DNA of 64,000 nt. Origin: Patescibacteria group bacterium. GTDB taxonomy: Bacteria > Patescibacteriota > Minisyncoccia > Phycocordibacterales > JAKAEA01. Under the pieces are notes generated by a model. The model did no database searches. It was not told the origin of the DNA and worked only from the letters and a program-made list of their open reading frames with translations. A program made the translations under genes and the position numbers. Positions 7,694-52,421 of the stretch are shown one piece after another (position 1 is the first letter of the stretch; each line of letters starts with the position of its first letter). The stretch is taken from positions 718,922 to 782,921 of the forward strand of contig JAZKCY010000001.1 of assembly GCA_040387855.1 (NCBI GenBank). Reading direction: 5' to 3'.

Positions 7694-7735
7694 ACAACAA
7701 CCGTACACATATGTGTACGGTTGTTTGTTTCTTAT
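7694..7735. terminator. bidirectional rho-independent terminator
   Basis: A perfect palindrome 'acaaccgtacacatatgtgtacggttgt' is followed by tgtttgtttctt. It lies between tRNA-Lys on the + strand and the 3' end of the convergent 7735..10671 gene. Confidence 0.7.
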
Positions 7736-10671
7736 TAAATACCCATCATTGTTTTAGTTTGGCTGATAGCCGATGCAGCAGTATACGATGGCATCCAGTT
7801 GTCTTTTGACTGTTTTCGAGCTTCTCTAATAAAGGTGTCAAAATTTGGTTTTGTAGTCTGTGTAGCCGATGGACTTGTAGTATTTTGAAGCACTGTAAAT
7901 ACAGAACTCTGCGGTACAAGACCGTCAATTTTATTATTTCTTATGACAATATTACTTGAAGATGTTCGCCACGGGGCGGTGTTACTTGGTCGTACTCTAT
8001 ACAATTCAAATGCAACAGGCCACTTGTAAAATGTATTATTTTCTATGGTTATGTTATGAAATCCCACAGCATCATTTTGATAGGCACCATCTCCTGGCTC
8101 GAAACGAATAGCTCCATAAATTGGAGTTGTAGATTCATTGTAGGCAATAATGTTATTTGAAATTTCAACGCTTCTAATATTTGCTAGTTCGATTCCAAAA
8201 CCTCGAGGACCAGCATTTGGGCCTGAATCTATTGAACGTGTTCCCAACATAACATTATTAATAATTTTTCCTGTAACTCCTTTTGGAAACGTTTGTCCAT
8301 CTCCACGAACAAGTCCAAATGTCATATTCATTGGATTATTGTAGTAAAAATTCCCCTCAACTATTCCTCCACCTCTCACTTGAGTTCCGTGACTCGATGC
8401 ATTTGCTACAATATTATTACGTATTACCACTCCCCAGTTCATTGCATGAATGTACATATTGTGATCATAAATGGTACTTCCTGAGCCATCCAATTTTCTT
8501 CCGTTATTATCAACAACGTTATCTTCAATGATAAGTCCATTTACACCATATGCATAAATTCCCTGCGGCTTACCTCCCGATTTGTAGTTATCAACTATCA
8601 CTGAACGGCGAATAGTTATATTAGTCATAACTGGTCTATCGTTGGGTGTGTACACAAGTGGCCCTGATGAAAACACAATGCCTTTATTATGTCTTTCAAT
8701 GTAACAATCTTCAATGAGAATATTTCCTCCGCCGTTTGATGTACCTTCAAGTCCAATACCATTACCATTATTATTTCCTTTGAAATGAATACCTACAACA
8801 GCAAAATTTCTTGTATTAAATTCAAAAAACAATCCAAAATCTGAAGAAGTTATAATTGGACGAGCACCTGAACCATATGAAGTGAGTACAAATTTATCTG
8901 AATTTGATCGTCCTGAAACAACTTTGCCGTTTACAGAATTTCTAACCATACCATTCCAAGTATCCCCTTTTTTTAATCTAATCTGATCTGGATATCCTAG
9001 TCGAACTTGAGAAAATGCTTTAGCTATTGTCTTAAGTGGACTATCAATAGTTCCACTGTTTGCATCATTTCCTTCTGAACTAGACACATGTATAACCTTT
9101 GAATCAAATTTAGGTGAAATATTTGTATACCCGGTTATATTCGGATCAACAGGTAATGATGCGTTGACAATAGTTTGTGCTGTAAGTGATGTTGTACCAC
9201 CATTACCTACACAATTAATTATAAATATTTTTGTGCCTGTTGTAGTGATATTTGATAAAACCACCTCTCCTGTCGCACTTTGATTTCCACTCCAATCACC
9301 TGAAGCAGAACATCCTGTTGCATTAGTTGAACTCCATTGGATTCGAATATTTCCACCACTCGTAATCACTGGTGTAGCGTTCAATGTAACTACAGGCTTC
9401 AGACTTACTACAGGTGGAGTTACTGGTGGAGTAGTTGAATCTGTAACTGTAAACGTAATAGTTGTAGGTGTTCCCGCAACAAGTACACCATTAATCTGCT
9501 TATATGGAGTTGCAACCACGCTATGTGCACCTACCGTAGGAGTCCAAGCATTTGGTCCTTGCGCACCATCTCCAGCAAAAAAGAATGGCGCTTGAGATTG
9601 GGTTTGAAAATTGGCATTGCCATCATATCCAAACTTGACCTGCACAACATCTGCGGCAACATTTGCTTTAATGTTTATATTTTTGGAAGTAAGCGCTCCA
9701 AGATTAATGGTATTTCCAGAATTAAGACTCGTAAAACCAGGAACAATAGTTGTTGAATTTGCATAATACAATGACAAGCTATCAATTTTTGCTGAAGCAA
9801 CTGGTGCAGCAACACTAAATCGAATAACTTTTGGAGTTCCTGAAATAAAAGTACTTCCTGCTTGTTTAAACGGAGTAATAGTCAATGTGTGATTACCCAC
9901 TGTTGGCGTCCATGCATTCAATTTGCCAACTCCGTAGTCCCCCGCAAATGAATATGGTGCTGTAGCTTGAGAGGAATAATTGTCTTTTGTATCATATCCA
10001 AATTGGATTTTTGCAATCATCTCATTAGCATTTGGTTCTGCTAAAATATTTAGATTTTTAGTACCAATCTTATCAAAATCAATCACAGCTCCATCTTGAA
10101 ATACGAAATTCGCAACTGGCTTTTGGGTATCAGTATTAATTAATACTACTGTAGATATTTGTGTGGGAGGGGCAACATCAATGACGGTAAACTGAACTGA
10201 CAATGCGCGTCCAATGGTTCCTGTCGCATTTGTTTTTGAATATGGAGTAGCCTTAATAGTATGAGTACCTGTCGTAGGAGTCCATGCCCCATAATCAGTA
10301 CCTGAATCTCCTGCAAAAGAATATGGTGCTGTTACTTCAGTTGAAAAATTTGTAGTACTATCGTATGCAAAACGAACACTACCCACCGTGGCAGGATTTG
10401 TCTTAGCAACTAAATTGAGATTACGAGTGGGTAATGTCGCTAAGTTGAGTGTAGTTCCATTAGTAAAATTTTCATATCCAGGAATCACTTGATTTGAATC
10501 TGCATTTATGAGACTAAATCCAGTCACTGATGTAGAAGTGGTAAGCTGGGCAACAATTTGATTTACTGCTGCTGTAAATGACATATTATTTGTCATCAAC
10601 GCTCTTACAAAGACAAAGCTACCAATAAAAACTGCGAGTAATGCAACCGAAAGTGAGATTTTTTTTATCAC
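7735..10671 (-). CDS. large secreted protein: signal peptide, three tandem ~110-aa Ig-like repeats, and a C-terminal right-handed parallel beta-helix (pectin-lyase-fold) domain
   Basis: The 978-aa product has a GTG start, a signal peptide 'MIKKISLSVALLAVFIGSFVFVRA', and three repeats each containing '...APYSFAGD.G...AWTPT.G.H...TPY/FK'. The C-terminal half is N/G-rich with beta-helix turn motifs such as 'NILIEDCYIERHNKGIVF' and 'NNVVDNNG'. Confidence 0.8.
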   Translation of the reverse strand: MIKKISLSVALLAVFIGSFVFVRALMTNNMSFTAAVNQIVAQLTTSTSVTGFSLINADSNQVIPGYENFTNGTTLNLATLPTRNLNLVAKTNPATVGSVRFAYDSTTNFSTEVTAPYSFAGDSGTDYGAWTPTTGTHTIKATPYSKTNATGTIGRALSVQFTVIDVAPPTQISTVVLINTDTQKPVANFVFQDGAVIDFDKIGTKNLNILAEPNANEMIAKIQFGYDTKDNYSSQATAPYSFAGDYGVGKLNAWTPTVGNHTLTITPFKQAGSTFISGTPKVIRFSVAAPVASAKIDSLSLYYANSTTIVPGFTSLNSGNTINLGALTSKNINIKANVAADVVQVKFGYDGNANFQTQSQAPFFFAGDGAQGPNAWTPTVGAHSVVATPYKQINGVLVAGTPTTITFTVTDSTTPPVTPPVVSLKPVVTLNATPVITSGGNIRIQWSSTNATGCSASGDWSGNQSATGEVVLSNITTTGTKIFIINCVGNGGTTSLTAQTIVNASLPVDPNITGYTNISPKFDSKVIHVSSSEGNDANSGTIDSPLKTIAKAFSQVRLGYPDQIRLKKGDTWNGMVRNSVNGKVVSGRSNSDKFVLTSYGSGARPIITSSDFGLFFEFNTRNFAVVGIHFKGNNNGNGIGLEGTSNGGGNILIEDCYIERHNKGIVFSSGPLVYTPNDRPVMTNITIRRSVIVDNYKSGGKPQGIYAYGVNGLIIEDNVVDNNGRKLDGSGSTIYDHNMYIHAMNWGVVIRNNIVANASSHGTQVRGGGIVEGNFYYNNPMNMTFGLVRGDGQTFPKGVTGKIINNVMLGTRSIDSGPNAGPRGFGIELANIRSVEISNNIIAYNESTTPIYGAIRFEPGDGAYQNDAVGFHNITIENNTFYKWPVAFELYRVRPSNTAPWRTSSSNIVIRNNKIDGLVPQSSVFTVLQNTTSPSATQTTKPNFDTFIREARKQSKDNWMPSYTAASAISQTKTMMGI
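9410..10500. repeat. three tandem ~330-bp intragenic repeats encoding Ig-like modules
   Basis: The protein-level repeat motif YSFAGD...AWTPTxGxH occurs three times, at about aa 60-420 of the 7735..10671 product. Confidence 0.6.
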
Positions 10672-10674
10672 TGA

Positions 10675-12087
10675 ATGCCCATTAATAAATTAGTAATCAA
10701 AATATACTCATGTATTATACTATATACATATAATATGAAGCTAACCTCAAACATATATAACAAAGTAATAAAATCTATAGTTGGTCTAGTTTTATTCCTA
10801 GCCTTTTTTATTGTCTGCGCCTACTCTTATGATCCTGATTTGGGTTGGCACATTAAATCAGGACAGTACATAGTTGAAAATGGAATACCAACATACGATA
10901 TTTTCTCATATAGCGCATCAAGCTTTGAATGGATTAATCACGAATGGCTGTATAGTGTTTTAATTTCACAACTTCATGCTCTTGGAGGAGAACTTTTACT
11001 TTCACTAGTAATAGCCGGATTGTGGACTGCTGGAATACTACTTGCTAGTAGAAAATATGAGCCTTTAATCCTCATAGCAGCTGGTATCTCTATTATTTCA
11101 TTTGCAGGTATTAGACCTTCAGTATTTGCTCTTTTGTTTTTTGTACTTTTAGAAAGAATCTTAGAAAAGATATCTACCCAAACAAATAAACTACCTTTTT
11201 TAATTTCATTAATCCTGCTGTTTTTAGTTTGGGCAAATATTCATGCAAGCTTTCCCTTAGGCTTTGTTGTTCTTATTATTTTTGCTTGTTCTCACAAAAA
11301 GACTATTCCTTGGTATATATATGCTACATGTATTCTCGCATCATTTGTAAATCCATATGGGCCTCACATATATGTAGAAATTTTTAGAACTCTTACAAGT
11401 AATGATTTGCGTGCCTATGTATCAGAATGGCAAGGGTATATCATCCCCATCACCTATTTCTTTACGATATTGCCGTTACTTTTAATGTATGTTTTTGGGA
11501 AAAAGAAAGCGATCTTCGATCGTAAATACCTGTTCTCTTGTATTTTATTCTGCGCAAGTATTGTAAGCACACGTTTTTTCTTATTCTTTACAGCATACAG
11601 CCTCAGATACTTGGAAGATTATTTTATAAAATTCCGTTCGTACATTAGATCCAAAGTATCAAATGTAAGTTTTGTATATACTTATGTACTAATAGGATGC
11701 AGTATCTTTTTTGTTGGTCTCACAGAACGAGTCTCTCACGGGCAGTATTATCCAGTTCAGGCTGTGGCATATCTTCAACAAAATGCCTGTCCTGGCAATC
11801 TTTTTAATTTTTATGATTATGGAGGATATCTTATTTGGAAATTGCCTTCACATAAAGTATTTATCGATGGACGAATGCCCACATGGCGAACAGATACAGA
11901 AAATTATATGGCAGATTATGTGCGCGCAATACATGATACCGAATTTAGAAAAACTCTTTTTGATACCCATACTATTAAGTGTGTTTTATTTCCCCACACA
12001 GCAACAAATCTAATCAGCGATTTAAAAACACAAGGTTGGAATGTTTTAATTGCTGATTCTACGAGTATTCTCTTGATTCAACAATAA
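10675..12087 (+). CDS. polytopic membrane protein, probable GT-C-fold glycosyltransferase
   Basis: The 470-aa product has 10 or more TM helices. The first extracytoplasmic loop carries 'YDPDLGWHIKSG...DIFSYS...WINHEWL', an acidic DxD-like motif in loop 1 that is typical of ArnT/PMT-like GT-C enzymes. The true start may be the internal Met at 10735. Confidence 0.5.
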   Translation: MPINKLVIKIYSCIILYTYNMKLTSNIYNKVIKSIVGLVLFLAFFIVCAYSYDPDLGWHIKSGQYIVENGIPTYDIFSYSASSFEWINHEWLYSVLISQLHALGGELLLSLVIAGLWTAGILLASRKYEPLILIAAGISIISFAGIRPSVFALLFFVLLERILEKISTQTNKLPFLISLILLFLVWANIHASFPLGFVVLIIFACSHKKTIPWYIYATCILASFVNPYGPHIYVEIFRTLTSNDLRAYVSEWQGYIIPITYFFTILPLLLMYVFGKKKAIFDRKYLFSCILFCASIVSTRFFLFFTAYSLRYLEDYFIKFRSYIRSKVSNVSFVYTYVLIGCSIFFVGLTERVSHGQYYPVQAVAYLQQNACPGNLFNFYDYGGYLIWKLPSHKVFIDGRMPTWRTDTENYMADYVRAIHDTEFRKTLFDTHTIKCVLFPHTATNLISDLKTQGWNVLIADSTSILLIQQ

Positions 12088-12128
12088 ATGTTGAGAAACA
12101 AACTTAAGTATAGTAGTATAGACGGACT

Positions 12129-12210
12129 GGGCGAGTGGCGGAATTGGTATACGCGCTAGTCTTAGGAACTAGTTCCTCACGGATTGGGAGTTCGAGTCTC
12201 CCCTCGCCCA
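12129..12210 (+). tRNA. tRNA-Leu (anticodon TAG), type II
   Basis: Acceptor gggcgag/ctcgccc; anticodon stem ctagt/actag with loop ctTAGga; long variable arm; T-arm gggag-ttcgagt-ctccc; discriminator A. Confidence 0.85.
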
Positions 12211-12223
12211 CAGTCAAGCAAAG

Positions 12224-12265
12224 AACCTTACAAAGCTTTTATGGCTCTATGTAAGGTTTTTTTGT
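12224..12265 (+). terminator. rho-independent terminator after tRNA-Leu(TAG)
   Basis: Stem aaccttaca/tgtaaggtt followed by ttttttg. Confidence 0.6.
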
Positions 12266-12277
12266 GTATCTCATCTA

Positions 12278-12307
12278 TTGACAAATAGGCACATATTGTG
12301 ATATAAT
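12278..12307 (+). promoter_or_regulatory. near-consensus sigma70 promoter driving the high-GC island
   Basis: -35 TTGACA at 12278-12283; an 18-nt spacer ending in TG (extended -10); -10 TATAAT at 12302-12307. A GGAG/AAGG ribosome-binding site precedes the ATG at 12376. Confidence 0.6.
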
Positions 12308-12375
12308 ACAGTCTGGTCCTTTGACAACCCAATCTACAACACAAACACCACGTAGTACGTGGAGAAAGGCACCCG

Positions 12376-13632
12376 ATGAACCCAGTTACACAACTGATCA
12401 TTGGTGGAGTGGCGTTCCTCGTGTGCGCCCTCCTCCTCGACATCCTCTGCGAAGAGGTGTGGAGGCCGCTCAAGCCCAAGTTCATGCGTTCGTTGTTTGG
12501 CCGTAAAAAGCGGAACGACGACGATGACAACAAGCCTCAGCACGATAGTGAGGTGAAGCGTTGGAGAAAGTTGAGGACTGCGTTTGCACTAACATTCGCA
12601 GCGATCTGCTTCTTCCTCCCCTTGTTCCTCATGCGACTTGCTCTACAAGACATCGACCCTCGGCTCAACCAGCTGATGGTGTTTGTGAGCTTGTACATCA
12701 TGTGGCATTTCGTGTCTGATGTCCTGCCGAAAATTAGCGTGTACGTGCCGGAAGGACAAGGACTCCTTACCCTCAACCAGTTCACGAAGAAGTTCGTCAT
12801 CTACGGACAGGGATTTAGCTTCCGTTTCCCTTGGGAGACGGTGCACGAGAAGAACCACATCTCGCTCCAGGACCTTACAATCCAGGTGCGCAAGATCAGC
12901 ATCCCCACCAAGGGTGCGAAAATCTACTTGTCGTTCCAGTTCAGCTGGAAGCCGCGTCTGAGCGACCTCGACGTGTTCTTCCAGATCGGTGGCAACATGG
13001 CTGAAGGAGTGTCGGAGAGGTTCCGCGCTATCTTCGAGGAGTTCTTTACCTCGCAGATTCGTCGGATACCTGCCGAAGTCGCTAGCAATGGGCAAATGAT
13101 CCTGAGCTGGTTGGCCCGGTCGGTGTTTGACATCGATCAAGACGAGATCAACCTTGATGACCCAAAAATCAGGAAGATCTACGAAAGGATGTCGAAGTAC
13201 GTCACCCTCGACGGCCAGCAAGGTGCGTTGAGGAATACCCGTCGTGCTCGTGAGCGCAAGTTCGGTGTCGACATGAATACCGTTGAGATAACGGACTTCG
13301 ATTTCGACAGGGATGTCCAAGAGGCACGGAACGCCATCGACATCCTTCGCAAGATGGGCCCGGCTATGCGAAAAAGCATGGGCATCAGTCAGGAGGCTTG
13401 GGAGAAGACCTATGTTAACCCTGACGATCCTGGCGCTCATCAGAGATACCTTGAGCTGTTTCAACAGTTTACGGTCATCACGAAGGACGCCAAGTCAACT
13501 ATCGTCGCAATCCAAGGCGGTAGTAATCAGGGTGATCCGCTGGTGCGAGCTGCTCTTGCAGAGCTTGCGGCCAAATCTCCCGATCCTGTGTTCCAAGCGG
13601 CGTTTGCCCAACTCTTGGCTGCAATGAAGTAA
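12376..13632 (+). CDS. SPFH/band-7 (flotillin/stomatin/HflKC-like) membrane protein, encoded in a high-GC island
   Basis: The 418-aa product has N-terminal TM helices. Its SPFH-like core reads 'VPEGQGLL...FVIYGQGFSFRFPW-ETVHEKNHISLQDLTIQVRKISIPTKGAKIYLSFQFSWKP', compared with the family pattern V.E.E.GVV.rfG..pGlhf.iP..d.v.kvd.R.q..d...q.v.TkD. A later stretch 'FGVDMNTVEITDFDFDRDVQEARNA' matches 'GIEV.sV.I.Di.pP.eVq.Af' and is followed by a helical tail. GC is about 55-58%, against about 38% in the flanks. Confidence 0.55.
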   Translation: MNPVTQLIIGGVAFLVCALLLDILCEEVWRPLKPKFMRSLFGRKKRNDDDDNKPQHDSEVKRWRKLRTAFALTFAAICFFLPLFLMRLALQDIDPRLNQLMVFVSLYIMWHFVSDVLPKISVYVPEGQGLLTLNQFTKKFVIYGQGFSFRFPWETVHEKNHISLQDLTIQVRKISIPTKGAKIYLSFQFSWKPRLSDLDVFFQIGGNMAEGVSERFRAIFEEFFTSQIRRIPAEVASNGQMILSWLARSVFDIDQDEINLDDPKIRKIYERMSKYVTLDGQQGALRNTRRARERKFGVDMNTVEITDFDFDRDVQEARNAIDILRKMGPAMRKSMGISQEAWEKTYVNPDDPGAHQRYLELFQQFTVITKDAKSTIVAIQGGSNQGDPLVRAALAELAAKSPDPVFQAAFAQLLAAMK

Positions 13633-13653
13633 CCTTTCTACAGGAGAAACATC

Positions 13654-14004
13654 ATGGCCAAGAATAAAGGCCAAGACAACAAGTCCGACGACAAGAAACC
13701 GGATGACAAGAAACCGGAACAGAAGAAGTCGCCGGAGCAGATCAACCAAGACGAGATGAAAAATCGCTCGTCAGCGTGGATGAAAGAAGGTCGCGAGAAC
13801 GGCACTAATGGATACAAAGAGTTCTACCCGCGAAATCGTCGCGGAGGATTCTACATCCTGCATGTCATTTTCGCGCTCTGGATCGTGTACGTGGTGATCC
13901 ACACCGCGCGCGAAGAGAAGTCCAAACCCAAGCTCAAACCCCAAGAAAGGAGTGTCCCGAAATGGACAGTAAACACAGCTGGATCGCCCTCCCTATCAGC
14001 GTGA
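13654..14004 (+). CDS. small hypothetical membrane protein (Lys/Asp-rich N-terminus, one TM helix)
   Basis: The 116-aa product lies in the island, is high-GC, and has the TM helix 'FYILHVIFALWIVYVVIHTA'. It is co-directional with the island's SPFH gene. Confidence 0.5.
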   Translation: MAKNKGQDNKSDDKKPDDKKPEQKKSPEQINQDEMKNRSSAWMKEGRENGTNGYKEFYPRNRRGGFYILHVIFALWIVYVVIHTAREEKSKPKLKPQERSVPKWTVNTAGSPSLSA

Positions 14005-14606
14005 TCGTCCTAGCGTTCATCCTCCGAGACTCAGTCTCTACGTTGGTGAACAAGTGGACGACACCCGTGAGGGAGCCGACGATGCAGGAGGCCGTCGACA
14101 AGTTCAATGCCGATAAGGCACGTATCGTGGCTGAGCAGCAAGCTGCCGCGAAAGCAACGGAAGCCATGAAGGCTTCCTTGCTCGGACCGGATTCAACGGC
14201 TTCATCGCCCACGAGTTCGACAACACCGAGCGGAACGCGGATCACACCGCCGCCCGTGTTCGTGTACCAGCCGGGCACAACGCCCGACTACCTACCCTGG
14301 CCAGATGGCAGGGCAGCGCTCATCGCCCCGAGCAGGTTCGATGGCCCACTTGAAGAAGTGAGCATGCGCGCACAAGACTACTACCCTGGCCTGCCTGCAG
14401 GTGTGGTCTACGATTGCGTGATTGTCGTAGAAACCGGAAAGCAAATCTGGATCTACGGCAATGGCTTCCGCGATTCGGCAGCTCATCGACTGCCGGCTCA
14501 TACCGACCTTAGCGGAAAGCCGCTACCGCGGTACCGGCTCATCGACATGATGTCGGTGAACGAGAGTCCCGTAAAGGTGACCCTCGAGTTCAACCGGAAG
14601 AAGTAG
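13962..14606 (+). CDS. hypothetical membrane-anchored protein (N-terminal signal-anchor, Ser/Thr/Pro-rich linker, C-terminal beta-rich domain)
   Basis: The 214-aa product has the N-terminus 'MDSKHSWIALPISVIVLAFIL'. It overlaps the preceding small ORF by 43 nt, so the start is uncertain. It is high-GC. Confidence 0.5.
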   Translation: MDSKHSWIALPISVIVLAFILRDSVSTLVNKWTTPVREPTMQEAVDKFNADKARIVAEQQAAAKATEAMKASLLGPDSTASSPTSSTTPSGTRITPPPVFVYQPGTTPDYLPWPDGRAALIAPSRFDGPLEEVSMRAQDYYPGLPAGVVYDCVIVVETGKQIWIYGNGFRDSAAHRLPAHTDLSGKPLPRYRLIDMMSVNESPVKVTLEFNRKK

Positions 14607-14658
14607 CCGTTGTAGATCGGGCGAAGCAGTTCATTGTGACTTCGGTCACACAAGCCAA

Positions 14659-14697
14659 GCGAGATTTCATTGTACGCAATGAGGTCTCGCTTTTTTA
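14659..14697 (+). terminator. rho-independent terminator closing the high-GC island
   Basis: A 14-bp stem gcgagatttcattg/caatgaggtctcgc (two G·U pairs) with loop tacg, followed by tttttt. A small UUCG-tetraloop hairpin 'tgtgacttcggtcaca' sits just upstream. Confidence 0.6.
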
Positions 14698-14721
14698 TTA
14701 CTCAAATCTCACTTTTTATAC

Positions 14722-14762
14722 AAAAAAAATAACCGCTTACACATGTAAGCGGTTATTTTTTA
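14722..14762. terminator. bidirectional terminator (A-tract / palindrome / T-tract)
   Basis: 'aaaaaaaataaccgcttacacatgtaagcggttattttt'. It overlaps the stop codon of the minus-strand pilin-like gene that ends at 14760. Confidence 0.65.
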
Positions 14763-15152
14763 AAATGATCCCTTATCTATAGTCGATGGAGTAAGGATTG
14801 TATCACCATTTAAATCTTCTGCTGTTCCACCATCTGTGACAGTGCTGAAAATAAACTGTGTGATTCCAAACGCTGAGAGCATGATTGCCATACCGATGAC
14901 TGCCCAAATCATATGCTTCCGTCCTTTATCTCTCTCCTCACTACTTGCTGCATTCCAGAGATATTTTACTGCCCCATAAAGGAAATATATAAGAGCTACT
15001 GCAAACAAAAGCCAAATAAGTGGAGCTACTATTTCACTAAGAATCTTATCAACTACGGGCTGAGCCGCTCCTAATGCAGATGCTCCTAACATAATATCTT
15101 TGTAATAATTAGTCGAGAATTTCTGGCTGTGCCTGAACTCCAGGAATTTCAC
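14760..15152 (-). CDS. TrbC/VirB2-like (type IV secretion pilin-like) small membrane protein, paralog 1 (no signal peptide)
   Basis: It carries the 2-TM module shared with the four upstream genes ('IVAPLIWLLFAVALIYFLYGAVKYLW...RKHMIWAVIGMAIMLSAFGI'). An alternative start at Met21 (15092) would remove the 44-nt overlap with the upstream gene. Confidence 0.6.
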   Translation of the reverse strand: MKFLEFRHSQKFSTNYYKDIMLGASALGAAQPVVDKILSEIVAPLIWLLFAVALIYFLYGAVKYLWNAASSEERDKGRKHMIWAVIGMAIMLSAFGITQFIFSTVTDGGTAEDLNGDTILTPSTIDKGSF

Positions 15153-15504
15153 TACTATTTAGCTGAGCTGGATCCAAACCGAATGCACTGATGAGAAGTC
15201 GTGAAATACCGAAAATACCGAGGATAACGGTAACACCAACGATTGACCATACGAGGAATTCTCGTGCCTTCTTTGCATCTTCAGGTCCTTTTGCAAGGAT
15301 AACTCGGATAACTCCGATGATGAACATTACGATCGCAAGCGCAATGAAGAACGGAATAGCGTAGTTTAATACGTTAGTCAAGTTCATAATTGTCGATGTA
15401 AGTCCATCGGCATTGAATCCACTTGGATCGATATCCTGTGCAGATGCCATTGATGGTACAAGTACCAATGCAAACATGAGTGCTGCTACTATTTTCTTTT
15501 TCAT
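15109..15504 (-). CDS. TrbC/VirB2-like pilin-family protein, paralog 2
   Basis: The 131-aa product has the signal peptide 'MKKKIVAALMFALVLVPSMASA' and the C-terminal 2-TM module 'NYAIPFFIALAIVMFIIGVIRVIL...AREFLVWSIVGVTVILGIFGI'. Confidence 0.65.
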   Translation of the reverse strand: MKKKIVAALMFALVLVPSMASAQDIDPSGFNADGLTSTIMNLTNVLNYAIPFFIALAIVMFIIGVIRVILAKGPEDAKKAREFLVWSIVGVTVILGIFGISRLLISAFGLDPAQLNSSEIPGVQAQPEILD

Positions 15505-15604
15505 ACTACTATTATTTATAACGATGACCTTGCTAATAAAAAACTATATAGTGTAATTATCTCTTATTTCAACTAAAAAGACAACACAACTGTGGATATC
15601 TTAC

Positions 15605-16306
15605 TTATGTTGTATCTACTGGAAAACCAGGTGGCGTTGGCCCGGTGCCTGGAGGATAATAATCAACACCATCTGGAACTGATGATTCACAGCCGTTACT
15701 ATTTATAGTTCCAAAAACCATTCCACTGAGCAATCGTGCAATTCCCCACAAGCTAAGGATAGCGGTCATTCCTATAATACTAAACACAATAAATCTTCTA
15801 CCATCTTCAATCTTTTTTGGATCTCCACTAAAGATGTATTTTATTACACCTATAATAAATCCAATAAAGGCAACAAGGATAAGAAACGGAACAAGATAAT
15901 TACCAGCATTAACAATTTGACCTATTACATTTTCCAAAGAACTTGTTGGACCTGATGTTGGTGAAACTACACAAACTAATGGTGATTCTGCGCTTGGAAA
16001 AAAAGATCCTTTAACCAAAAGGGCTAATCCCCACACAGAGAGCATGACACTTACGGTGATAATACCGTACACAATATAGCTCCGTGCCTCTGCTATTTTT
16101 TTGGGATCAGCACTATATATATACTTAATGATACCTATAATAAATCCAATCAATGCTAATAAGAAAAATAAAGGGACAAGTGCATTTGCAATACCAATAA
16201 GCATGCCCACTAAATCTTTTAGATTTTTGGGATCATCGGCAAATACCTGATTCGGTAGGAGAATTAGTGCTAGGGTTATAATTGTTATTAATTTTTTAAA
16301 CATCAA
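15605..16306 (-). CDS. TrbC/VirB2-like pilin-family protein with two tandem pilin modules, paralog 3
   Basis: The 233-aa product has a signal peptide and two copies of the module ('LVPLFFLLALIGFIIGIIKYIYSADPKKIAEARSYIVYGIITVSVMLSVWGLALL' and 'LVPFLILVAFIGFIIGVIKYIFSGDPKKIEDGRRFIVFSIIGMTAILSLWGIARLL'). The C-terminus is Pro/Gly-rich. Confidence 0.65.
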   Translation of the reverse strand: MMFKKLITIITLALILLPNQVFADDPKNLKDLVGMLIGIANALVPLFFLLALIGFIIGIIKYIYSADPKKIAEARSYIVYGIITVSVMLSVWGLALLVKGSFFPSAESPLVCVVSPTSGPTSSLENVIGQIVNAGNYLVPFLILVAFIGFIIGVIKYIFSGDPKKIEDGRRFIVFSIIGMTAILSLWGIARLLSGMVFGTINSNGCESSVPDGVDYYPPGTGPTPPGFPVDTT

Positions 16307-16324
16307 AATAGTATTTAAACCATG

Positions 16325-16810
16325 TTAATCTGCCTCGGGTGCTGCACAAATACTTGCTCCTGGATTGAAGCTTGTTGTAATACTTGAAACTGTATTAAAT
16401 ACGACTTTTGCAATAACAGATGCTCCTAAAAGAATTGCCAATCCAATAACCGTTGTATAGAACGTACTCTTTGCTTTCTGAATTTCTTCAGGTTTACCTT
16501 GAGCTTTAATGAACAGGAATCCCGCCCAAATGATAAATAACACTCCTACAATTGCTCCAATCTCAGCTACAATATTTAGAATTTGATTAATAAGATCGCA
16601 TAAGTTCCCTATTCCGCTATCATCATCAAAAGGATTATCTAAAGCAACATCGGGCAAACCACCTGGAACAGTGGGCTCCTCACCTCCAGTGACAACAGGC
16701 GGTGCTGGAGGTGTTACTGCATCAACAGCATATACATTTCTCTGACCTACTGACGTAATAGCCAGCAGCATAAATAGCAACCCAGCTAATATTTTACAGA
16801 ATTTTTTCAT
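16325..16810 (-). CDS. TrbC/VirB2-like pilin-family protein, paralog 4
   Basis: The 161-aa product has a signal peptide and the module 'IVAEIGAIVGVLFIIWAGFLFIKAQGKPEEIQKAKSTFYTTVIGLAILLGASVIA'. Confidence 0.65.
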   Translation of the reverse strand: MKKFCKILAGLLFMLLAITSVGQRNVYAVDAVTPPAPPVVTGGEEPTVPGGLPDVALDNPFDDDSGIGNLCDLINQILNIVAEIGAIVGVLFIIWAGFLFIKAQGKPEEIQKAKSTFYTTVIGLAILLGASVIAKVVFNTVSSITTSFNPGASICAAPEAD

Positions 16811-16812
16811 AA

Positions 16813-17499
16813 TTATGGTTTTAAGAACATATTAAATTCATCACTCAAGAATGTTGAAGTAATTAAATAGACAATTAACCATGCAGAAAGAATAATAATA
16901 AATCCAATCATTACTTTGCCGGCAATTTCTTTTGCCTGCGTAACTTTTGAAGCATTGCCGCCAGCAGTGAGCAACAAAATTCCCACATAGGTAAATGCAA
17001 TTACGGTGAGTGGAATCGAAATCGTAAACATCACATTGATAAGATTTTGTATTAGAATTACAACATCATTGAAACCACATTCTTTATATTTATCATTAGC
17101 AGCAGTAAGTGCATCATCTGCCGCCCCATCAGATGGGTCAACACCTTCAAATCGAGCTTTTATTGTTTGCCCTTTTGTAAGAACTGTACCATTGTAATCA
17201 TATGTCTCACCTGTATAGGTAACATCATAATCTACTCCATGACTAACATTGTTTCTAAGATCTGGTGGAGTACCTTTATTTATCTTAAATCTATTGGCTG
17301 GAATGTATTCTCCTCCCACATTAAATTGAGCATGTTCATCATATACCTTTTGGTATGCTGTTTCTGCTTCACCAGAATATTGAGTTCCATTACAAGGAAT
17401 TATTGCTGAGAGCTGAGCTTGTGCAATAAGTGGAACTCCAACCAAAAGGAAGACTGCGAAGCAAAAACTTATTACTGATGTGAACGTGATTTTTTTCAT
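16813..17499 (-). CDS. TrbC/VirB2-like pilin-family protein, paralog 5 (larger extracellular N-domain)
   Basis: The 228-aa product has a signal peptide, an extracellular domain of about 130 aa, and the 2-TM module 'ISIPLTVIAFTYVGILLLTAGGNASKVTQAKEIAGKVMIGFIIILSAWLIV'. Confidence 0.65.
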   Translation of the reverse strand: MKKITFTSVISFCFAVFLLVGVPLIAQAQLSAIIPCNGTQYSGEAETAYQKVYDEHAQFNVGGEYIPANRFKINKGTPPDLRNNVSHGVDYDVTYTGETYDYNGTVLTKGQTIKARFEGVDPSDGAADDALTAANDKYKECGFNDVVILIQNLINVMFTISIPLTVIAFTYVGILLLTAGGNASKVTQAKEIAGKVMIGFIIILSAWLIVYLITSTFLSDEFNMFLKP

Positions 17500-32515: not shown

Positions 32516-32872
32516 TTACTCATCTTTGATGAACTCCAGTTTCATGACGGGACCGGTGTAGAAGGAAATCTTGAGGGTTCCTTTCAAACTACAGTCCTGA
32601 GTCATCATGGGGAGGGACACCGAAGATTCACCTGCTGGTACAACGATCTTGAAGGGATTTAATCCCTGGCCGAACATGTAGTACTCACTACCCACAGTGA
32701 CGATGACGGTTTGACCAGTGTCATTGTTGAAGGTAGGTGTCATGGTGACCGATTCGGTCATGCTCAGTGGTGCTGGCGTGGGCTGTGTGTTTTTAGGCAC
32801 ATAGATGTCACAACCAGTGAGCAACACAGATACGGAGAGGAAAAGAACGCAGAGATAGTCACGAAGTCGCAT
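32516..32872 (-). CDS. putative lipoprotein (lipobox LLTGC), hypothetical
   Basis: The 118-aa product has the signal peptide 'MRLRDYLCVLFLSVSVLLTGC' with Cys+1. Its GC is visibly higher than that of its neighbours. Confidence 0.5.
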   Translation of the reverse strand: MRLRDYLCVLFLSVSVLLTGCDIYVPKNTQPTPAPLSMTESVTMTPTFNNDTGQTVIVTVGSEYYMFGQGLNPFKIVVPAGESSVSLPMMTQDCSLKGTLKISFYTGPVMKLEFIKDE

Positions 32873-37524: not shown

Positions 37525-37597
37525 GGGCGGTTAGCTCAGTTGGTAGAGCGCAACATTGACGTTGTTGATGTCAGAGGTTCGAATCCTCTACCGCCCA
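37525..37597 (+). tRNA. tRNA-Val (anticodon GAC)
   Basis: Acceptor gggcggt/accgccc; anticodon stem caaca/tgttg with loop ttGACgt; T-arm agagg-ttcgaat-cctct; discriminator A. Confidence 0.85.
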
Positions 37598-37686
37598 CAA
37601 AATCTGTATTTGACTTATTTAATAATCTATTGTATTTTACTCCCAGTCTTGAACATCCTCGCAATGAATGAAAGGTAGGTACAACC

Positions 37687-38424
37687 ATGTCAGAACTACA
37701 ATTGTGGGAGTGGGCGCAAAAAAATAAGGCGCCCACAAATCCCTCCCCGCTTTACGAAGCAGTGCTCATCGCCACGGTGAAGCTGCCCGACGGACTTGGG
37801 GGGCTCTGCTTCGGAGTCATGCTAGCTAGTCGTGCCAACAACGGTGGTTCGATTACCACCTGCGCCCAAACGTTCCCAGAGGGCGAAAGTTACCAATACG
37901 CCTATGCTCGTATCTGGGAGCAAGTCCCGAAGGACGGGATAATGCTCCGTCCGATCAACAAGATCGTGCCGGCAACAACAACCACGCGGGGACCGAACAC
38001 GGGCCGCCTGCAGGTGCGTGAGTTCTTCGACGGACCGATTGAGCAGGTAGATTTAGCCGTTGCAACGGGAACTGATCGCGGAGGATTGGTTTCCGTGAAC
38101 GGATTCTCCCGCATTCCGCGATTCGAGCGGTGCGACATCGGTCTGTTTAAGGACATGCAGACCAATCCACAAACGGCACTCAACCTGGTAACGGGAAAGC
38201 GAGTGCCCTACGTGGGTCAGAGCGAGTTACAGCATGGATTCGTCACCCGTGCACTTGCCACACCATTCGAGGTTGCTCATCAAGGGGTTCCCTACCTCTA
38301 CGATGACGGATTGATTAGCATTTCAAAGGGCGAAGCATCGGTTGATCTACCAGCTGCTGGAAATCAACCTGCCCAAACGGTTTCGCTCACTGTCGGTGTA
38401 GCATTCGCTCCCGGCATTCGATAA
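37687..38424 (+). CDS. hypothetical protein (245 aa) encoded on a high-GC insert immediately 3' of tRNA-Val
   Basis: GC is about 55-57%, against about 38% in the flanks. The product 'MSELQLWEWAQKNKAPTNPSPLYEAVLIATVKLPDGLGG...' has no signal peptide, no TM helix and no family I can recognise. A terminator hairpin (accac-gtaaca-gtggt-ttttttt) follows at about 38431-38455. Confidence 0.5.
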   Translation: MSELQLWEWAQKNKAPTNPSPLYEAVLIATVKLPDGLGGLCFGVMLASRANNGGSITTCAQTFPEGESYQYAYARIWEQVPKDGIMLRPINKIVPATTTTRGPNTGRLQVREFFDGPIEQVDLAVATGTDRGGLVSVNGFSRIPRFERCDIGLFKDMQTNPQTALNLVTGKRVPYVGQSELQHGFVTRALATPFEVAHQGVPYLYDDGLISISKGEASVDLPAAGNQPAQTVSLTVGVAFAPGIR

Positions 38425-38490
38425 TGCCCACCACGTAACAGTGGTTTTTTTATACTAAAATGAGATACTAACCAGTATTACATCATCTCA

Positions 38491-49613: not shown

Positions 49614-52019
49614 CTATCGATCTTCTGTTTCTTCAGCTGCTGTATCATCTTTTAACGGTGGTCGTGAACGATCTTCAGGAGCATTATCAAGTGGAGGTTG
49701 TACTCCGGCAAATGGATCCTTTGCTGCTGTTAGATTTGTAAGAATAAGATCTATTTCTTTGTTATCAGGATTTGATTGCTTTAGCTCCTGGAATTGCTTG
49801 ATAGCTTCAGGATTCTTTCCTAATTTACTATAAGAAAGACCTAAGAAGTATTTTGCATTGGCATAATCTGGAGTCAGCGTAATTGCTTGTTCAAATGCTC
49901 CTACTGAACCAGTATAGTCTTTATTCTCATATCGTAAGAGCCCAAGTTGGAAGTATACACCTGAATTTGTAGGATTCAAGTATGCAGCATTTTCTACAGA
50001 TTTGATTGCGCTTGGTAGATCTCCCTCATTAATCTGAATTTGTGAGAGCAAGAATATTGCGTCAGTATAATCTGGCTTCAATCGTAGAGCCTCAGTAATT
50101 TCTGCTTTCGCTTTTGCAATATCCTTTTGTGCAACATCAAGTCGAGCTACAACCAATAAGATTGACGGACTCTTGGGATTGAGTCGCTTGGCTTCCATGT
50201 AGGCTTTCTGAGCTTCTGCATATGCTCCTTCAATATTGAAAGGAACAACAGATTCATATACTTTACCCAAACTCAACCAGTTTTGATAATTACTTGGATC
50301 ATTATTTACTGCACTTTGTGCTGCACCTTGAGCTCCAGCGAGATGCGCTCTAAACTGATTTTGCATAACCTCCTGAGAAATATCTTTACGTGAAAGAAGT
50401 ATATTTATTTTAATGAGATTGAGGTCAGTAAGAGTTCGGTAGTAGAGATCGTTATCACTAAGCTGAAGCGCACGTACCAAATTTTGCTCAGAAGCTTCAA
50501 CATTGGCATTTATATTTGCTTCTACGAGGGCCTTATTGTAATACACTGATGCAATAAATCGGCGACCTACTGCATAGGTAGAAATAATAAGTCCAATAAT
50601 TAGAACAATAAACACAAGTACCGATGCAAAACTTGTTCGTGGATCTTTTACAAAATTGAAGGCTCGTGTTTTTACAAGTCCCGCTTCAACGAGAGATGCC
50701 ATAAATACTCCAGTGAAAAAGAACGTGAGAATAAGTAAGGGAGCCGATGGAACATAGAAGAACAGGAAGATCCACAAATACAGTGAGAGAATAAATGATG
50801 AAACAAGAATAAATCGTGAGAATATATCTACAGTTCGAGTAAACAGCGCTTTAAAGCCCATGTAGAGAAACAGCACGAGAAATACTATCCACGAAAGAAA
50901 CCCTATAATTCCAGTTGTAACAAGAAACGTAGGGATAAGACCTATGCCGTAATTGAAATCAGTTCCCCAAAATACAGTACTGTTTATGACATCAGGTTTT
51001 GAGGTAAGCCACTCTGCTGAAAATCGATTTGGGCCAGCTCCAAACAATGGATCACGTTTGAGAGTCTGTTTTGCAATCTCCCATGTAGCTTGTAATGAAG
51101 GTCGTACTTCTACATTATCAACTACCAATCGGTTAAATATAGGTAGTGATCGATATAAGTTTCCTTGGAGGAGAATAAAAAACACTGAGATTATTAATAC
51201 AATAAGAGATACAACAGGTACAGTTCGCTTTGAGTCATCAGACTGTAGTGGCGACTCAGCATGCATATGCGCACGATTGAATGAGAAGTTATATACAAAG
51301 AAAATAAGAGCAAAGCCAGCAAGGATGTACCAAACAACACTGAAACTAATCACACTCAAGAAAAATAGTGAAATTCCAAGTATTGTTCCAATTACTATTT
51401 TCATCCACTTTTCAAGTTTTAATAGTTCAAGTGTAATGAATGAAAAGAGCGCAGCTAGACCAAAATAGATCCCCAAGTCATTCCATCCTCCAAGCAATGT
51501 CGATGTAGGGCCTGCAAATGCACTTAATGTGAGTATATTAGGTCCAAATAATAGACGGATAAACTGAAAGAGCGCCACAACTGGAATTGTGGCAATAAAC
51601 GCAAAGTATGAGTATACAACCTTTTGCTTTGTGCTAAAGAAATATGAAACAGCAAGTGCAAAGAATACGAGAGCTGCAATAAATAGTAAGCTACCTATTT
51701 CAAATCCCTGTCCTATGAGTGAGACGGTTTTTGCTGGAGATAATAATGCAGATACTGCATATGCAACTGGCACAACTGCAAGAGAAATAAATAATGGATG
51801 AGTAGGAGCTTTAATAATTCCATCTTTCAAACGAGCAATAGTACATACACACACACTTACAACAATTCCAATAAAAAGAAGTGCTACTTTTGAGAACTGA
51901 AACGGCACATACACAGAAGGAATAAAAAATATTGGTGCCAGAAAAATTACTAATAATATTGACCAATGCGCGATTTTGTCAGCCAAAAGTTCTTTTGGTG
52001 AGTGTGTATGATTTTCCAT
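49614..52019 (-). CDS. O-antigen-ligase/polymerase-like polytopic membrane protein fused to a C-terminal TPR-repeat domain
   Basis: The 801-aa product has about 12 TM helices in its N-terminal 450 aa, including the ligase-like 'DFNYGIGLIPTFLVTTGIIGF' and 'GAGPNRF'. At least 6 TPR units follow ('YYNKALVEANINANVEASEQNLVRAL', 'AEITEALRLKPDYTDAIFLLSQI', 'AFEQAITLTPDYANAKYFLGLSY'). Confidence 0.55.
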   Translation of the reverse strand: MENHTHSPKELLADKIAHWSILLVIFLAPIFFIPSVYVPFQFSKVALLFIGIVVSVCVCTIARLKDGIIKAPTHPLFISLAVVPVAYAVSALLSPAKTVSLIGQGFEIGSLLFIAALVFFALAVSYFFSTKQKVVYSYFAFIATIPVVALFQFIRLLFGPNILTLSAFAGPTSTLLGGWNDLGIYFGLAALFSFITLELLKLEKWMKIVIGTILGISLFFLSVISFSVVWYILAGFALIFFVYNFSFNRAHMHAESPLQSDDSKRTVPVVSLIVLIISVFFILLQGNLYRSLPIFNRLVVDNVEVRPSLQATWEIAKQTLKRDPLFGAGPNRFSAEWLTSKPDVINSTVFWGTDFNYGIGLIPTFLVTTGIIGFLSWIVFLVLFLYMGFKALFTRTVDIFSRFILVSSFILSLYLWIFLFFYVPSAPLLILTFFFTGVFMASLVEAGLVKTRAFNFVKDPRTSFASVLVFIVLIIGLIISTYAVGRRFIASVYYNKALVEANINANVEASEQNLVRALQLSDNDLYYRTLTDLNLIKINILLSRKDISQEVMQNQFRAHLAGAQGAAQSAVNNDPSNYQNWLSLGKVYESVVPFNIEGAYAEAQKAYMEAKRLNPKSPSILLVVARLDVAQKDIAKAKAEITEALRLKPDYTDAIFLLSQIQINEGDLPSAIKSVENAAYLNPTNSGVYFQLGLLRYENKDYTGSVGAFEQAITLTPDYANAKYFLGLSYSKLGKNPEAIKQFQELKQSNPDNKEIDLILTNLTAAKDPFAGVQPPLDNAPEDRSRPPLKDDTAAEETEDR

Positions 52020-52085
52020 ATAGATGTTTCTCTATTATAGAGCAATGTATGCCTCAACAGCAACGCATAAGTGTGCATAATAAGC

Positions 52086-52116
52086 AGAAACCACATGCTA
52101 TTAACATGTGGTTTCT
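52086..52116 (-). terminator. terminator of the RNase P RNA gene
   Basis: On the minus strand, 'agaaaccacatg-ttaatag-catgtggtttct' lies immediately after the RNA 3' end. Confidence 0.6.
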
Positions 52117-52123
52117 GATGTGT

Positions 52124-52421
52124 ATGCCTTGCATCGATAAGCCGAATTCTGTCGTGGATAATCATTTATCTGGGCCCACCCTTACGAGTGAGCTCAAGCG
52201 GCACTCCCAACTCAACCTTGCGGCTTCGTGGGCTCGGCCTTGCACCTAGGTAAGAATTTAGCCGTTTCACTCCCACTAAAGGGATTCGTCACTGTTCGCA
52301 TCTCGGTAGCTCGCATACAAGCTACGACGGGCGTTACCCGCTACCCTACTGCTCTTTCAAGCAAGTGTTCGGACTTTCCTCACCTCACCTTGCGATGAAG
52401 CGCGATTATCTAATGCAAGAT
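52124..52421 (-). ncRNA. rnpB: RNase P RNA (bacterial type A, compact ~300 nt)
   Basis: The reverse strand contains universally conserved blocks: '...GGUGAGGAAAGUCCGAACAC' (P4 5' strand, compare E. coli GGGGAGGAAAGUCCGGGCUCC); 'AGGGUAGCGGGUAACGCCCG' (compare AGGGCAGGUAACGCCUGGG); and 'CAGAUAAAUGAUUAUCCACGACAGAAUUCGGCUUAUCG' (compare CUAGAUGAAUGACUGUCCACGACAGAACCCGGCUUAUCGG). P1 is cuugcau/augcaag. A TTGATT-16-TATAAT promoter lies at 52428-52455 on the minus strand. Exact ends are ±5 nt. Confidence 0.88.

Follow-up and report, generated by a model that had tools for sequence, protein, structure and literature searches.

A probably native, GC-rich SPFH operon in a conserved tRNA-Leu slot of Parcubacteria

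The DNA analyzed is a stretch of 64,000 nucleotides (nt) from a Patescibacteria group bacterium (assembly GCA_040387855.1, contig JAZKCY010000001.1, positions 718,922 to 782,921 of the forward strand), and 'the window' refers to this full 64-kb stretch. The subject is a compact operon of three co-directional genes that lies directly downstream of a tRNA-Leu gene, encodes a divergent SPFH/Band_7 protein and two smaller membrane-associated proteins, and is far richer in G and C than the DNA around it. The original prediction, made from the letters of the window, had described positions 12211-14700 as a self-contained GC-rich island inserted at the tRNA. Loci and contigs of relatives compared with the window are denoted L001, L002 and so on; GC contents at first, second and third codon positions are denoted GC1, GC2 and GC3. 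The features of the locus are given below, with open reading frame abbreviated as ORF and AlphaFold2 as AF2.

12129 to 12211, plus strand: tRNA-Leu(UAG), gene anticodon tag (ARAGORN; Rfam tRNA, 59 bits)
12220 to 12263, plus strand: hairpin and T run ending the tRNA transcript (inverted repeat I2, 12220-12235/12247-12262)
12278 to 12307, plus strand: putative sigma70-type promoter, TTGACA, 18-nt spacer, TG-n-TATAAT with extended -10 (12/12 consensus positions)
12320 to 12328, plus strand: leader box TTTGACAAC in the 5' untranslated region (exact 9-mer shared with relatives)
12376 to 13632, plus strand: gene 1, 418-aa divergent SPFH/Band_7 protein (Pfam, profile search, AF2 and Foldseek; GC3 0.69)
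13654 to 14004, plus strand: gene 2, 116-aa small membrane protein (ORF list, hydropathy; GC3 0.66)
13962 to 14606, plus strand: gene 3, 214-aa signal-anchored protein, probably extracytoplasmic (N-terminal hydrophobic helix; GC3 0.70)
14657 to 14698, plus strand: intrinsic terminator of the operon (16-pair hairpin 14657-14692 and T run)
14724 to 14761, no strand: perfect 18-nt inverted repeat I1, terminator of the convergent pilin array (inverted-repeat search)
14760 to 17499, minus strand: array of five VirB2/TrbC-like type IV secretion system (T4SS) pilin genes, convergent with the operon (Pfam T4SS_pilin PF18895/TrbC for four)

The three predicted ORFs of 418, 116 and 214 aa were all found in the ORF list, and the 273-aa antisense ORF at 12643-13464 (minus strand) was also present. 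The latter was rejected as a gene, being expected from the composition.

The 418-aa protein was assigned to the SPFH/Band 7 family by several methods that agree with the predicted polytopic SPFH/band-7 protein. The Pfam match to PF01145 (Band_7) is marginal but above the gathering score (GA) (25.5 bits vs. GA 23.6, E = 1.6e-5, residues 125-319). A profile of the protein and its relatives matches HflC 9paw (E = 0.004) and stomatin, weakly. The AF2 model has a predicted local distance difference test score (pLDDT) of 73 overall and 85-91 in the core, and consists of an SPFH core at residues ~121-330 followed by C-terminal helices. Foldseek gave probability 1.00 to HflK/C, prohibitin, stomatin, erlin, flotillin and QmcA(-YbbJ), with target-normalised TM-scores of 0.45-0.56 and HflK/C 7vhq as the best match (E = 2.8e-10). 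Hydrophobic stretches were located by hydropathy at residues 1-30 and 66-93 of the N-terminus, where AF2 placed helices at 3-28, 64-90 and 95-120. As the loop between the first two helices is basic, the SPFH domain probably lies on the cytoplasmic side, like those of stomatin and QmcA. Profile threshold, alpha/beta core with long helices, and N-terminal anchor (of predicted orientation) all place the protein in SPFH/Band 7. The window and all examined relatives have one SPFH gene to the operon and no tandem HflK/HflC pair.

The product of gene 2 has a Lys/Asp-rich N-terminus, a conserved (R/Q)xNGTxxYxEFY motif and a single C-terminal transmembrane (TM) helix (residues 63-86); homologues were found 3' of the SPFH gene in L001, L002, L004 and L005. 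Gene 3 starts within gene 2 (overlap 43 nt). Its product has an anchor at the N-terminus, then a helical stretch and a linker rich in Ser, Thr and Pro, and ends in a C-terminal domain. It is 49-51% identical to P0003 of L001, and no similarity was detectable to its positional counterparts in L002 and L006. The AF2 model of this protein (pLDDT 43.6) was too low in quality for use. Hydropathy agreed with the single TM helix and the signal anchor that had been predicted for the two proteins. The proposed resemblance to SPFH plus NfeD modules failed at the sequence level, as neither protein matched NfeD PF01957 at E ≤ 1 in Pfam or at all in NCBIfam; at the fold level, a cryptic OB-fold in the gene 3 product is conceivable. 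A role in defence had also been raised; none of the three operon proteins had a match at E ≤ 1 in PADLOC-DB 2.0, and no family was found for any of them in PHROGs, PADLOC or NCBIfam, nor in Pfam for the two downstream proteins.

Transcription signals were located at both ends of the unit. The near-perfect sigma70 promoter of the original prediction is the only 12/12 match within 11500-15500, and promoters of the form TTGAC(A/T)-17/18-TGnTA(T/C)(A/T)AT lie upstream of the SPFH gene in L002, L004 and L005. The leader box TTTGACAAC occurs in exact form 30-55 nt upstream of the SPFH start in the window, L005 (184-192), L008 (14733-14741) and L009 (7331-7339), with near-matches in L002 and L036. 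It is kept in these four lineages although their SPFH proteins are only 24-30% identical, and by this conservation it marks a putative regulatory element. On its 3' side follow a CA-rich tract and then a small hairpin (12348-12362) beside the Shine-Dalgarno site. Of 11 lineages, 8 have small GC-rich hairpins of differing sequence beside the Shine-Dalgarno site, suggestive of translational control; when leader RNA folds were compared with shuffles, z-scores were not significant, L027 excepted. The operon's own terminator was present as predicted, and a homologous hairpin with paired changes was found in L001. An Rfam search of window 11900-15000 returned the tRNA as the only match.

The jump in composition after the tRNA-Leu was borne out, GC being 0.543 at 12310-14650 and 0.384 in the rest of the window. 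In 300-nt windows GC was 0.37-0.41 before 12350, 0.51-0.60 over 12350-14600 and 0.39 by 14600-14899, and among 1-kb bins across the 64-kb window none outside the block exceeded 0.46. The predicted borders are thus correct in their sharpness but not in the placing of the onset at 12265, since the rise begins at ~12310, the predicted transcription start, and the promoter region is AT-rich. As GC rises where the transcript is predicted to start, and not where the tRNA terminator ends, it is the transcript that forms the GC-rich unit. Mean GC3 of the 53 other window ORFs was 0.29 (standard deviation 0.08), vs. the values of 0.66 and above listed for genes 1 to 3; GC3 outside the block is also put at 0.27. 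The shift lies overwhelmingly in third codon positions, with GC1 and GC2 near native, and codon preference is reversed for every amino acid in the operon (e.g., NAC over NAU, CUC/CUG over UUA). GC at 4-fold degenerate sites moves from 0.21 to 0.63, and G and C are enriched there to about equal degree. The least constrained operon proteins also have an elevated GC2 (0.49 in gene 3) and an elevated share of Gly, Ala, Arg and Pro (GARP), which points to a pressure at the nucleotide level.

Three simple accounts were rejected. Amino-acid composition is not the cause, as the shift is mainly in third positions. High expression as the sole cause conflicts with the low GC3 of S1, FtsZ and IF-2 (0.23-0.33). 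A diversity-generating retroelement was discarded, as neither template/variable repeats nor a reverse transcriptase were found.

To place the operon among relatives, DNA was reached via contigs encoding SPFH homologues and via a scan with the nearby methyltransferase (one genome per GTDB species). The scan returned ~40 Patescibacteria loci, labelled Paceibacterota, Nomura-, Taylor-, Yonath-, Kaiser- and Campbell-bacteria; the taxon of the Taylorbacteria record lies within the NCBI Parcubacteria group. About 20 independently assembled genomes of Parcubacteria have this operon in this slot, and methyltransferase identity among relatives that share the slot goes down to 34-66%. The order at the slot is tRNA-Leu(tag), then the operon, towards which the pilin array is oriented, followed by SBP (SBP_bac_1), the methyltransferase and GyrA; the order from pilin array to GyrA is kept in relatives. 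In L002, a 1.0-Mb contig, the upstream order is that of the window (aminotransferase, DUF4446, IF-2, RbfA, tRNA-Cys, tRNA-Leu(taa) and later tRNA-Leu(tag)), and is followed by SPFH, the small TM protein, a 214-aa protein, the convergent T4SS-pilin array, SBP, methyltransferase and GyrA. Slot conservation extends to L003, L004, L006/7, L008, L021, L027 and L043, and tRNA-Leu(tag) stands upstream of the operon in L002, L003, L004, L006, L008, L021, L027, L043 and others. In those loci of the methyltransferase scan that were long enough, a Band_7-type protein and a signal-anchored protein lie between tRNA-Leu(tag) and the pilin array. In ten further loci, Band_7 was matched by nine of the ten slot proteins, five of them above GA.

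Recurrence of the slot bears directly on two ways in which the block could be foreign to its genome. The first is an assembly chimera or contamination, i.e., a GC-rich fragment mis-joined into a metagenome-assembled genome, in which a sharp composition change such as this one could be produced. The same junctions recur in independent JGI, Logan, NCBI and ENA assemblies, and promoter, leader box and terminator are homologous across independent assemblies. Because the junctions recur in ~20 of these, a chimera does not account for the block, and its probability is practically nil.

The second is the island of the original prediction, a recent one-off insertion or decayed integrative element at the 3' flank of the tRNA-Leu, carrying cargo from a high-GC donor such as an actinobacterial host. 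Atypical composition beside a tRNA, together with an own promoter and terminator, is what such an island would show, and an empty site exists in one lineage, L020. Occupation of the same site by the same operon in ~20 divergent lineages argues strongly against it. An empty tRNA-Leu site was sought in relatives, as had been proposed; the closest sampled lineages (L001, L008 and L002) all have the slot occupied, L020 being a distant exception. The earlier observations that integrase and att-like repeat are missing were confirmed: 12211-14700 contains no ORFs other than the three of the operon and antisense ones due to composition, the flanks are a membrane protein and pilins, and the 3' end of the tRNA has only chance-level 11-nt matches, none at the junctions. 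Genes from a high-GC actinobacterial donor are expected to have higher GC1 and GC2, which here are near native.

The database searches also returned no sign of a donor. In a word-indexed search of 5.8 billion clusters, the sole match to the 418-aa SPFH query was the query protein. HMMER was run exhaustively against 1.84 billion representatives and returned 112 SPFH matches, the best of which (36% identity) is a syntenic Patescibacteria copy; no homologue above this identity was found, and none was traced to another phylum. Counted in proteins, the space in which such syntenic copies are the closest homologues comprises 15 billion. Every one of the closest SPFH relatives with retrievable DNA context lies at the same locus. 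Pattern scans of genome and metagenome contigs with SPFH alignments gave no matches, one alignment being too diverse for use, and no relatives of the operon were found in the phage, plasmid and IMG/VR collections searched. Recent acquisition from a GC-rich donor is thus contradicted on several counts and is very improbable; recent island and artefact taken together are still highly improbable.

The age of the composition was estimated from divergence at 4-fold sites. SPFH proteins are 24-34% identical between lineages and evolve far faster than the flanks. Between the window and L002, IF-2 is 67% identical, and identity at its 4-fold sites is 0.30 (0.29 by chance), i.e., saturated. Despite this saturation, GC at 4-fold sites of the operon is 0.66 in the window and 0.62 in L002. 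Between the window and L001, the closest sampled lineage, the adjacent pilin is 83% identical, and operon GC3 is 0.70-0.72 in both. Identity at 4-fold sites for this pair was 0.51 in the pilin (expected 0.37) and 0.45 in gene 3 (expected 0.27). Such similar residual identity indicates the same age, operon and flank having diverged together and the operon proteins faster. By a rough estimate, about half of the 4-fold sites have turned over per lineage since the split of the window and L001, without drift toward the genomic ~0.2. As GC3 was held despite synonymous turnover, neutral amelioration of a foreign fragment cannot explain the composition.

Operon GC3 was then compared with local background across 18 lineages, which are related by phylogeny and hence not independent, and in which ORFs were crudely called; it exceeded background in 16 of them (mean +0.17, Wilcoxon P = 3.8e-5). 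Operon GC3 ranged from 0.27 to 0.69 and background from 0.19 to 0.53, and the two were uncorrelated (r = 0.16). The excess, which ranged from 0 to +0.40, was greatest in the most AT-rich genomes (r = -0.63). Values for individual loci are given below.

Window: operon GC3 0.69, background 0.29
L008: operon GC3 0.58, background 0.25
L002: operon GC3 0.66, background 0.40
L027: operon GC3 0.69, background 0.38
L036: operon GC3 0.60, background 0.24
L026: operon GC3 0.45, background 0.19
L043: operon GC3 0.54, background 0.34
L014: operon GC3 0.58, background 0.40

It had been stated beforehand that an inserted island would be spoken against if relatives carried these genes at the tRNA and their codon usage was native. 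The genes are there; codon usage is non-native in most lineages. GC-richness that has been maintained for long and largely independently of host composition must be kept by a locus-specific force. Window 12278-14698 is therefore best read as one strongly promoted transcription unit that is native to a Parcubacteria (Patescibacteria) lineage and occupies an old slot, with no recent insertion. It is considered probable that the SPFH operon is native and conserved and that its compositional anomaly has been maintained, a judgement that covers no particular cause.

Several points weigh against this reading, beside the relatedness of the 18 lineages and the crude ORF calling. In L020 (13880-14532), tRNA-Leu(tag), a tRNA-Lys (CTT anticodon visible), a bidirectional terminator and the pilin array follow one another, and the operon is absent; this is the only operon-less slot among those examined. 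Operons of native composition occur in L005 (GC3 0.29), L039 and L015, and the excess is weak in L006; function thus does not require high GC. SPFH and flanks are mismatched in their similarity: L008, the genome nearest to the window by methyltransferase (66% identity) and SBP (55%), has the most divergent SPFH (24%), while the window and L002 share 34% in SPFH. Allele exchange or replacement fits this incongruence as well as uneven rates do. Finally, GC3 is 0.44 in conserved amino-acid columns vs. 0.57 in variable ones (P = 0.002), which argues against accuracy-type codon selection and fits GC-biased substitution.

As to the force itself, selection on the nucleotide or codon content of the transcript is ranked first, and is favored only tentatively. 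An operon held at GC3 ~0.5-0.7 within genomes of GC3 0.2-0.4 by selection on the transcript itself is a possible, if somewhat doubtful, account. Such selection could take the form of a codon-biased translational switch on rare G/C-ending codons, dependent on tRNA supply or wobble modification and possibly on the host; another possible form is an mRNA resistant to AU-directed RNases. An extreme version, with a cassette adapted to being expressed in a GC-rich partner cell in the manner of T-DNA, is most improbable.

Ranked second, and rather unlikely, is a recombination hotspot with GC-biased gene conversion (gBGC), in which the slot is often converted by divergent alleles of related cells and the resolution is biased to GC. 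Anchored by the tRNA with promoter and leader on one side and by the terminator on the other, such a hotspot would give both fast divergence and GC excess. It would fit the incongruence of SPFH with the flanks, the replacement of gene 3 or its divergence past recognition, and the sharp edges at conserved non-coding anchors. The raised GC at first and second codon positions and raised GARP where constraint is low, the higher GC3 of variable columns, and the about equal enrichment of G and C at 4-fold sites are likewise compatible with it. In the pilin array (GC3 0.22-0.36), the two genes nearest the operon are slightly higher (0.34-0.36) than the next three (0.22-0.24), again as gBGC would have it; the array as a whole, however, is equally variable yet not GC-rich. 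Near-identical alleles in distant genomes were missing from the 5.8 billion clusters searched, and synonymous divergence of operon and flank is alike between the window and L001, as for vertical descent. The shift at 4-fold sites is also very large for this process: bacterial gBGC effects in the work of Lassalle et al. from 2015 are reportedly far smaller than a change from 0.21 to 0.63.

Incongruent SPFH similarities would also follow from repeated xenologous replacement, in which alleles from GC-richer Parcubacteria such as L021 enter via the conserved flanks and are partly ameliorated. The operon is near-native in L021, whose genome is 50% GC, as well as in L015, L034 and L009, the excess of 0 to +0.40 is as expected for differing residence times, and presence varies, L020 being without the operon. 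The deviation, however, is always upward (16/18), and exchange within a clade of mean GC3 ~0.37 should not give ~0.55. No donor-like close allele was found for any lineage examined. The window and L001 both have the high operon GC3 given above at a flank-like synonymous divergence, and the turnover of roughly half of their 4-fold sites brought no decay to the genomic 0.2. This third-ranked explanation is considered improbable.

A working model for the preferred reading can be put together from the parts. The consensus promoter, also present in L002, L004 and L005, would imply strong constitutive transcription. The SPFH protein, anchored by its N-terminal helices, would form an oligomeric membrane cage or microdomain, by homology to HflK/C, stomatin and QmcA. 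The tail-anchored 116-aa protein is probably a partner or client of the cage, and the gene 3 product, translationally coupled, fast-evolving and presumably exposed outside the cell, may serve as an interface with host cell, phage or pilus. Invariant adjacency to the VirB2-like pilin array suggests a possible functional link.

Such arrays in Patescibacteria hold 2-11 variable pilin genes across 383 assemblies (PMC12102498), and the same paper refers to one pilin array reported essential in a Saccharibacteria strain; the words SPFH, band, stomatin, GC content and tRNA are nowhere in its text. Literature searches on SPFH/stomatin in Patescibacteria and on persistent GC-rich conserved loci returned nothing relevant. 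No paper describing the operon or its GC anomaly was found, and the operon is a previously undescribed neighbour of Patescibacteria VirB2-like pilin arrays. In the window, the fifth pilin gene (16813-17499) matches an L002 pilin (14064-14477).

Further observations were made in the flanks. GyrA of L002 (16754-19224) was called as four genes and is intact in L003, which carries an identical SPFH protein; frameshift errors in that long contig are the likely reason for the split. Window 7735-12087, which lies between tRNA-Lys and tRNA-Leu(tag), encodes two large lineage-specific proteins, one of 978 aa (minus strand) and a polytopic membrane protein of 470 aa (plus strand), neither with a Pfam or NCBIfam match; the latter has a 41% homologue nearby in L002. 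Between tRNA-Lys and tRNA-Leu(tag) of L006 (4794-5390), just upstream of the SPFH operon, lies a 198-aa secreted/membrane protein of GC3 0.77 that matches phrog_33832 (E = 1e-7), a PHROG without assigned function.

Other atypical ORFs were noted in the window. A second mini-island of like layout (37525-38450) consists of tRNA-Val(gac) (37525-37598), an AT-rich spacer with TTGACT, a 245-aa ORF (37687-38424; GC 0.55, GC3 0.58; no family match) and a hairpin with T run. The only homologue of this ORF, P0116 (58% identical), lies on L088 in another context, inside a ~1.9-kb GC-rich block. Between two GC-rich ORFs, L088 also contains a sequence resembling a type III hammerhead ribozyme (1455-1497; CUGAUGAG...CGAAA core); at 31.1 bits it falls short of the gathering score, 48.5, and its E-value in a search of 300 nt was 5.4e-5. 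A 118-aa ORF at 32516-32872 (minus strand) has a lipoprotein-like signal (LLTGC), a GC3 of 0.59 and no family match. Bacterial RNase P RNA class A was located at 52122-52421 (minus strand; 121.6 bits), and the ORF that overlaps it (51932-52249, GC3 0.45) is probably spurious.

Atypical GC next to a tRNA is taken as a rule to mean recent horizontal transfer, and this locus clearly breaks that rule. In most of the carrier Parcubacteria examined, it would be flagged by composition-based island callers, which would be wrong on its age. It is also a compact natural test case for selection vs. biased conversion in setting bacterial GC beyond mutation. An SPFH scaffold with a hypervariable exposed partner is a candidate organiser of the surface machinery on which these host-dependent cells rely. 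If transcript selection is the true cause, the operon would be a coding locus insulated in composition throughout a clade of class rank and linked to the pilus and cell-surface apparatus of an epibiont.

Among known systems, the operon is closest in layout to SPFH-plus-partner operons. In QmcA-YbbJ of E. coli (PDB 8z5g), as here, an N-terminally anchored SPFH protein is followed by small membrane protein(s), and the predicted fold of gene 1 matches those of QmcA, stomatin and HflK/C. The likely action is the same, namely that of an oligomeric cage at the membrane, by which a partner is enclosed or organised. The SPFH protein here differs in being barely above the Pfam threshold and in having three N-terminal helices rather than one helix or hairpin. 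Stomatin-NfeD type operons are a related arrangement; archaeal stomatin PH1511 is paired with the NfeD protease PH1510, and B. subtilis FloT/FloA with NfeD2/NfeD1b. The NfeD domain is theirs and is not detectable by sequence in the downstream proteins of the operon, which instead has a tail-anchored partner with its own motif and a hypervariable exposed protein. HflK/HflC-FtsH gave the best structural and profile match (7vhq and 9paw, with the E-values above) at an identity of 17-19%, but that system has a paralogous pair, whereas a single SPFH gene is present here and no FtsH in the operon or the adjacent region examined.

A lasting atypical composition is also known from surface-antigen loci, such as the low-GC O-antigen and capsule clusters of Enterobacteriaceae. 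Shared with these are a putative envelope role, a fixed slot between conserved flanks, high divergence and persistence of the atypical GC; here, in contrast, the deviation is upward, three genes make up a locus of just 2.4 kb, and the core gene is homologous throughout. The Patescibacteria VirB2-like pilin arrays are the nearest system in space: the operon always abuts one, and their pilin genes keep native GC.

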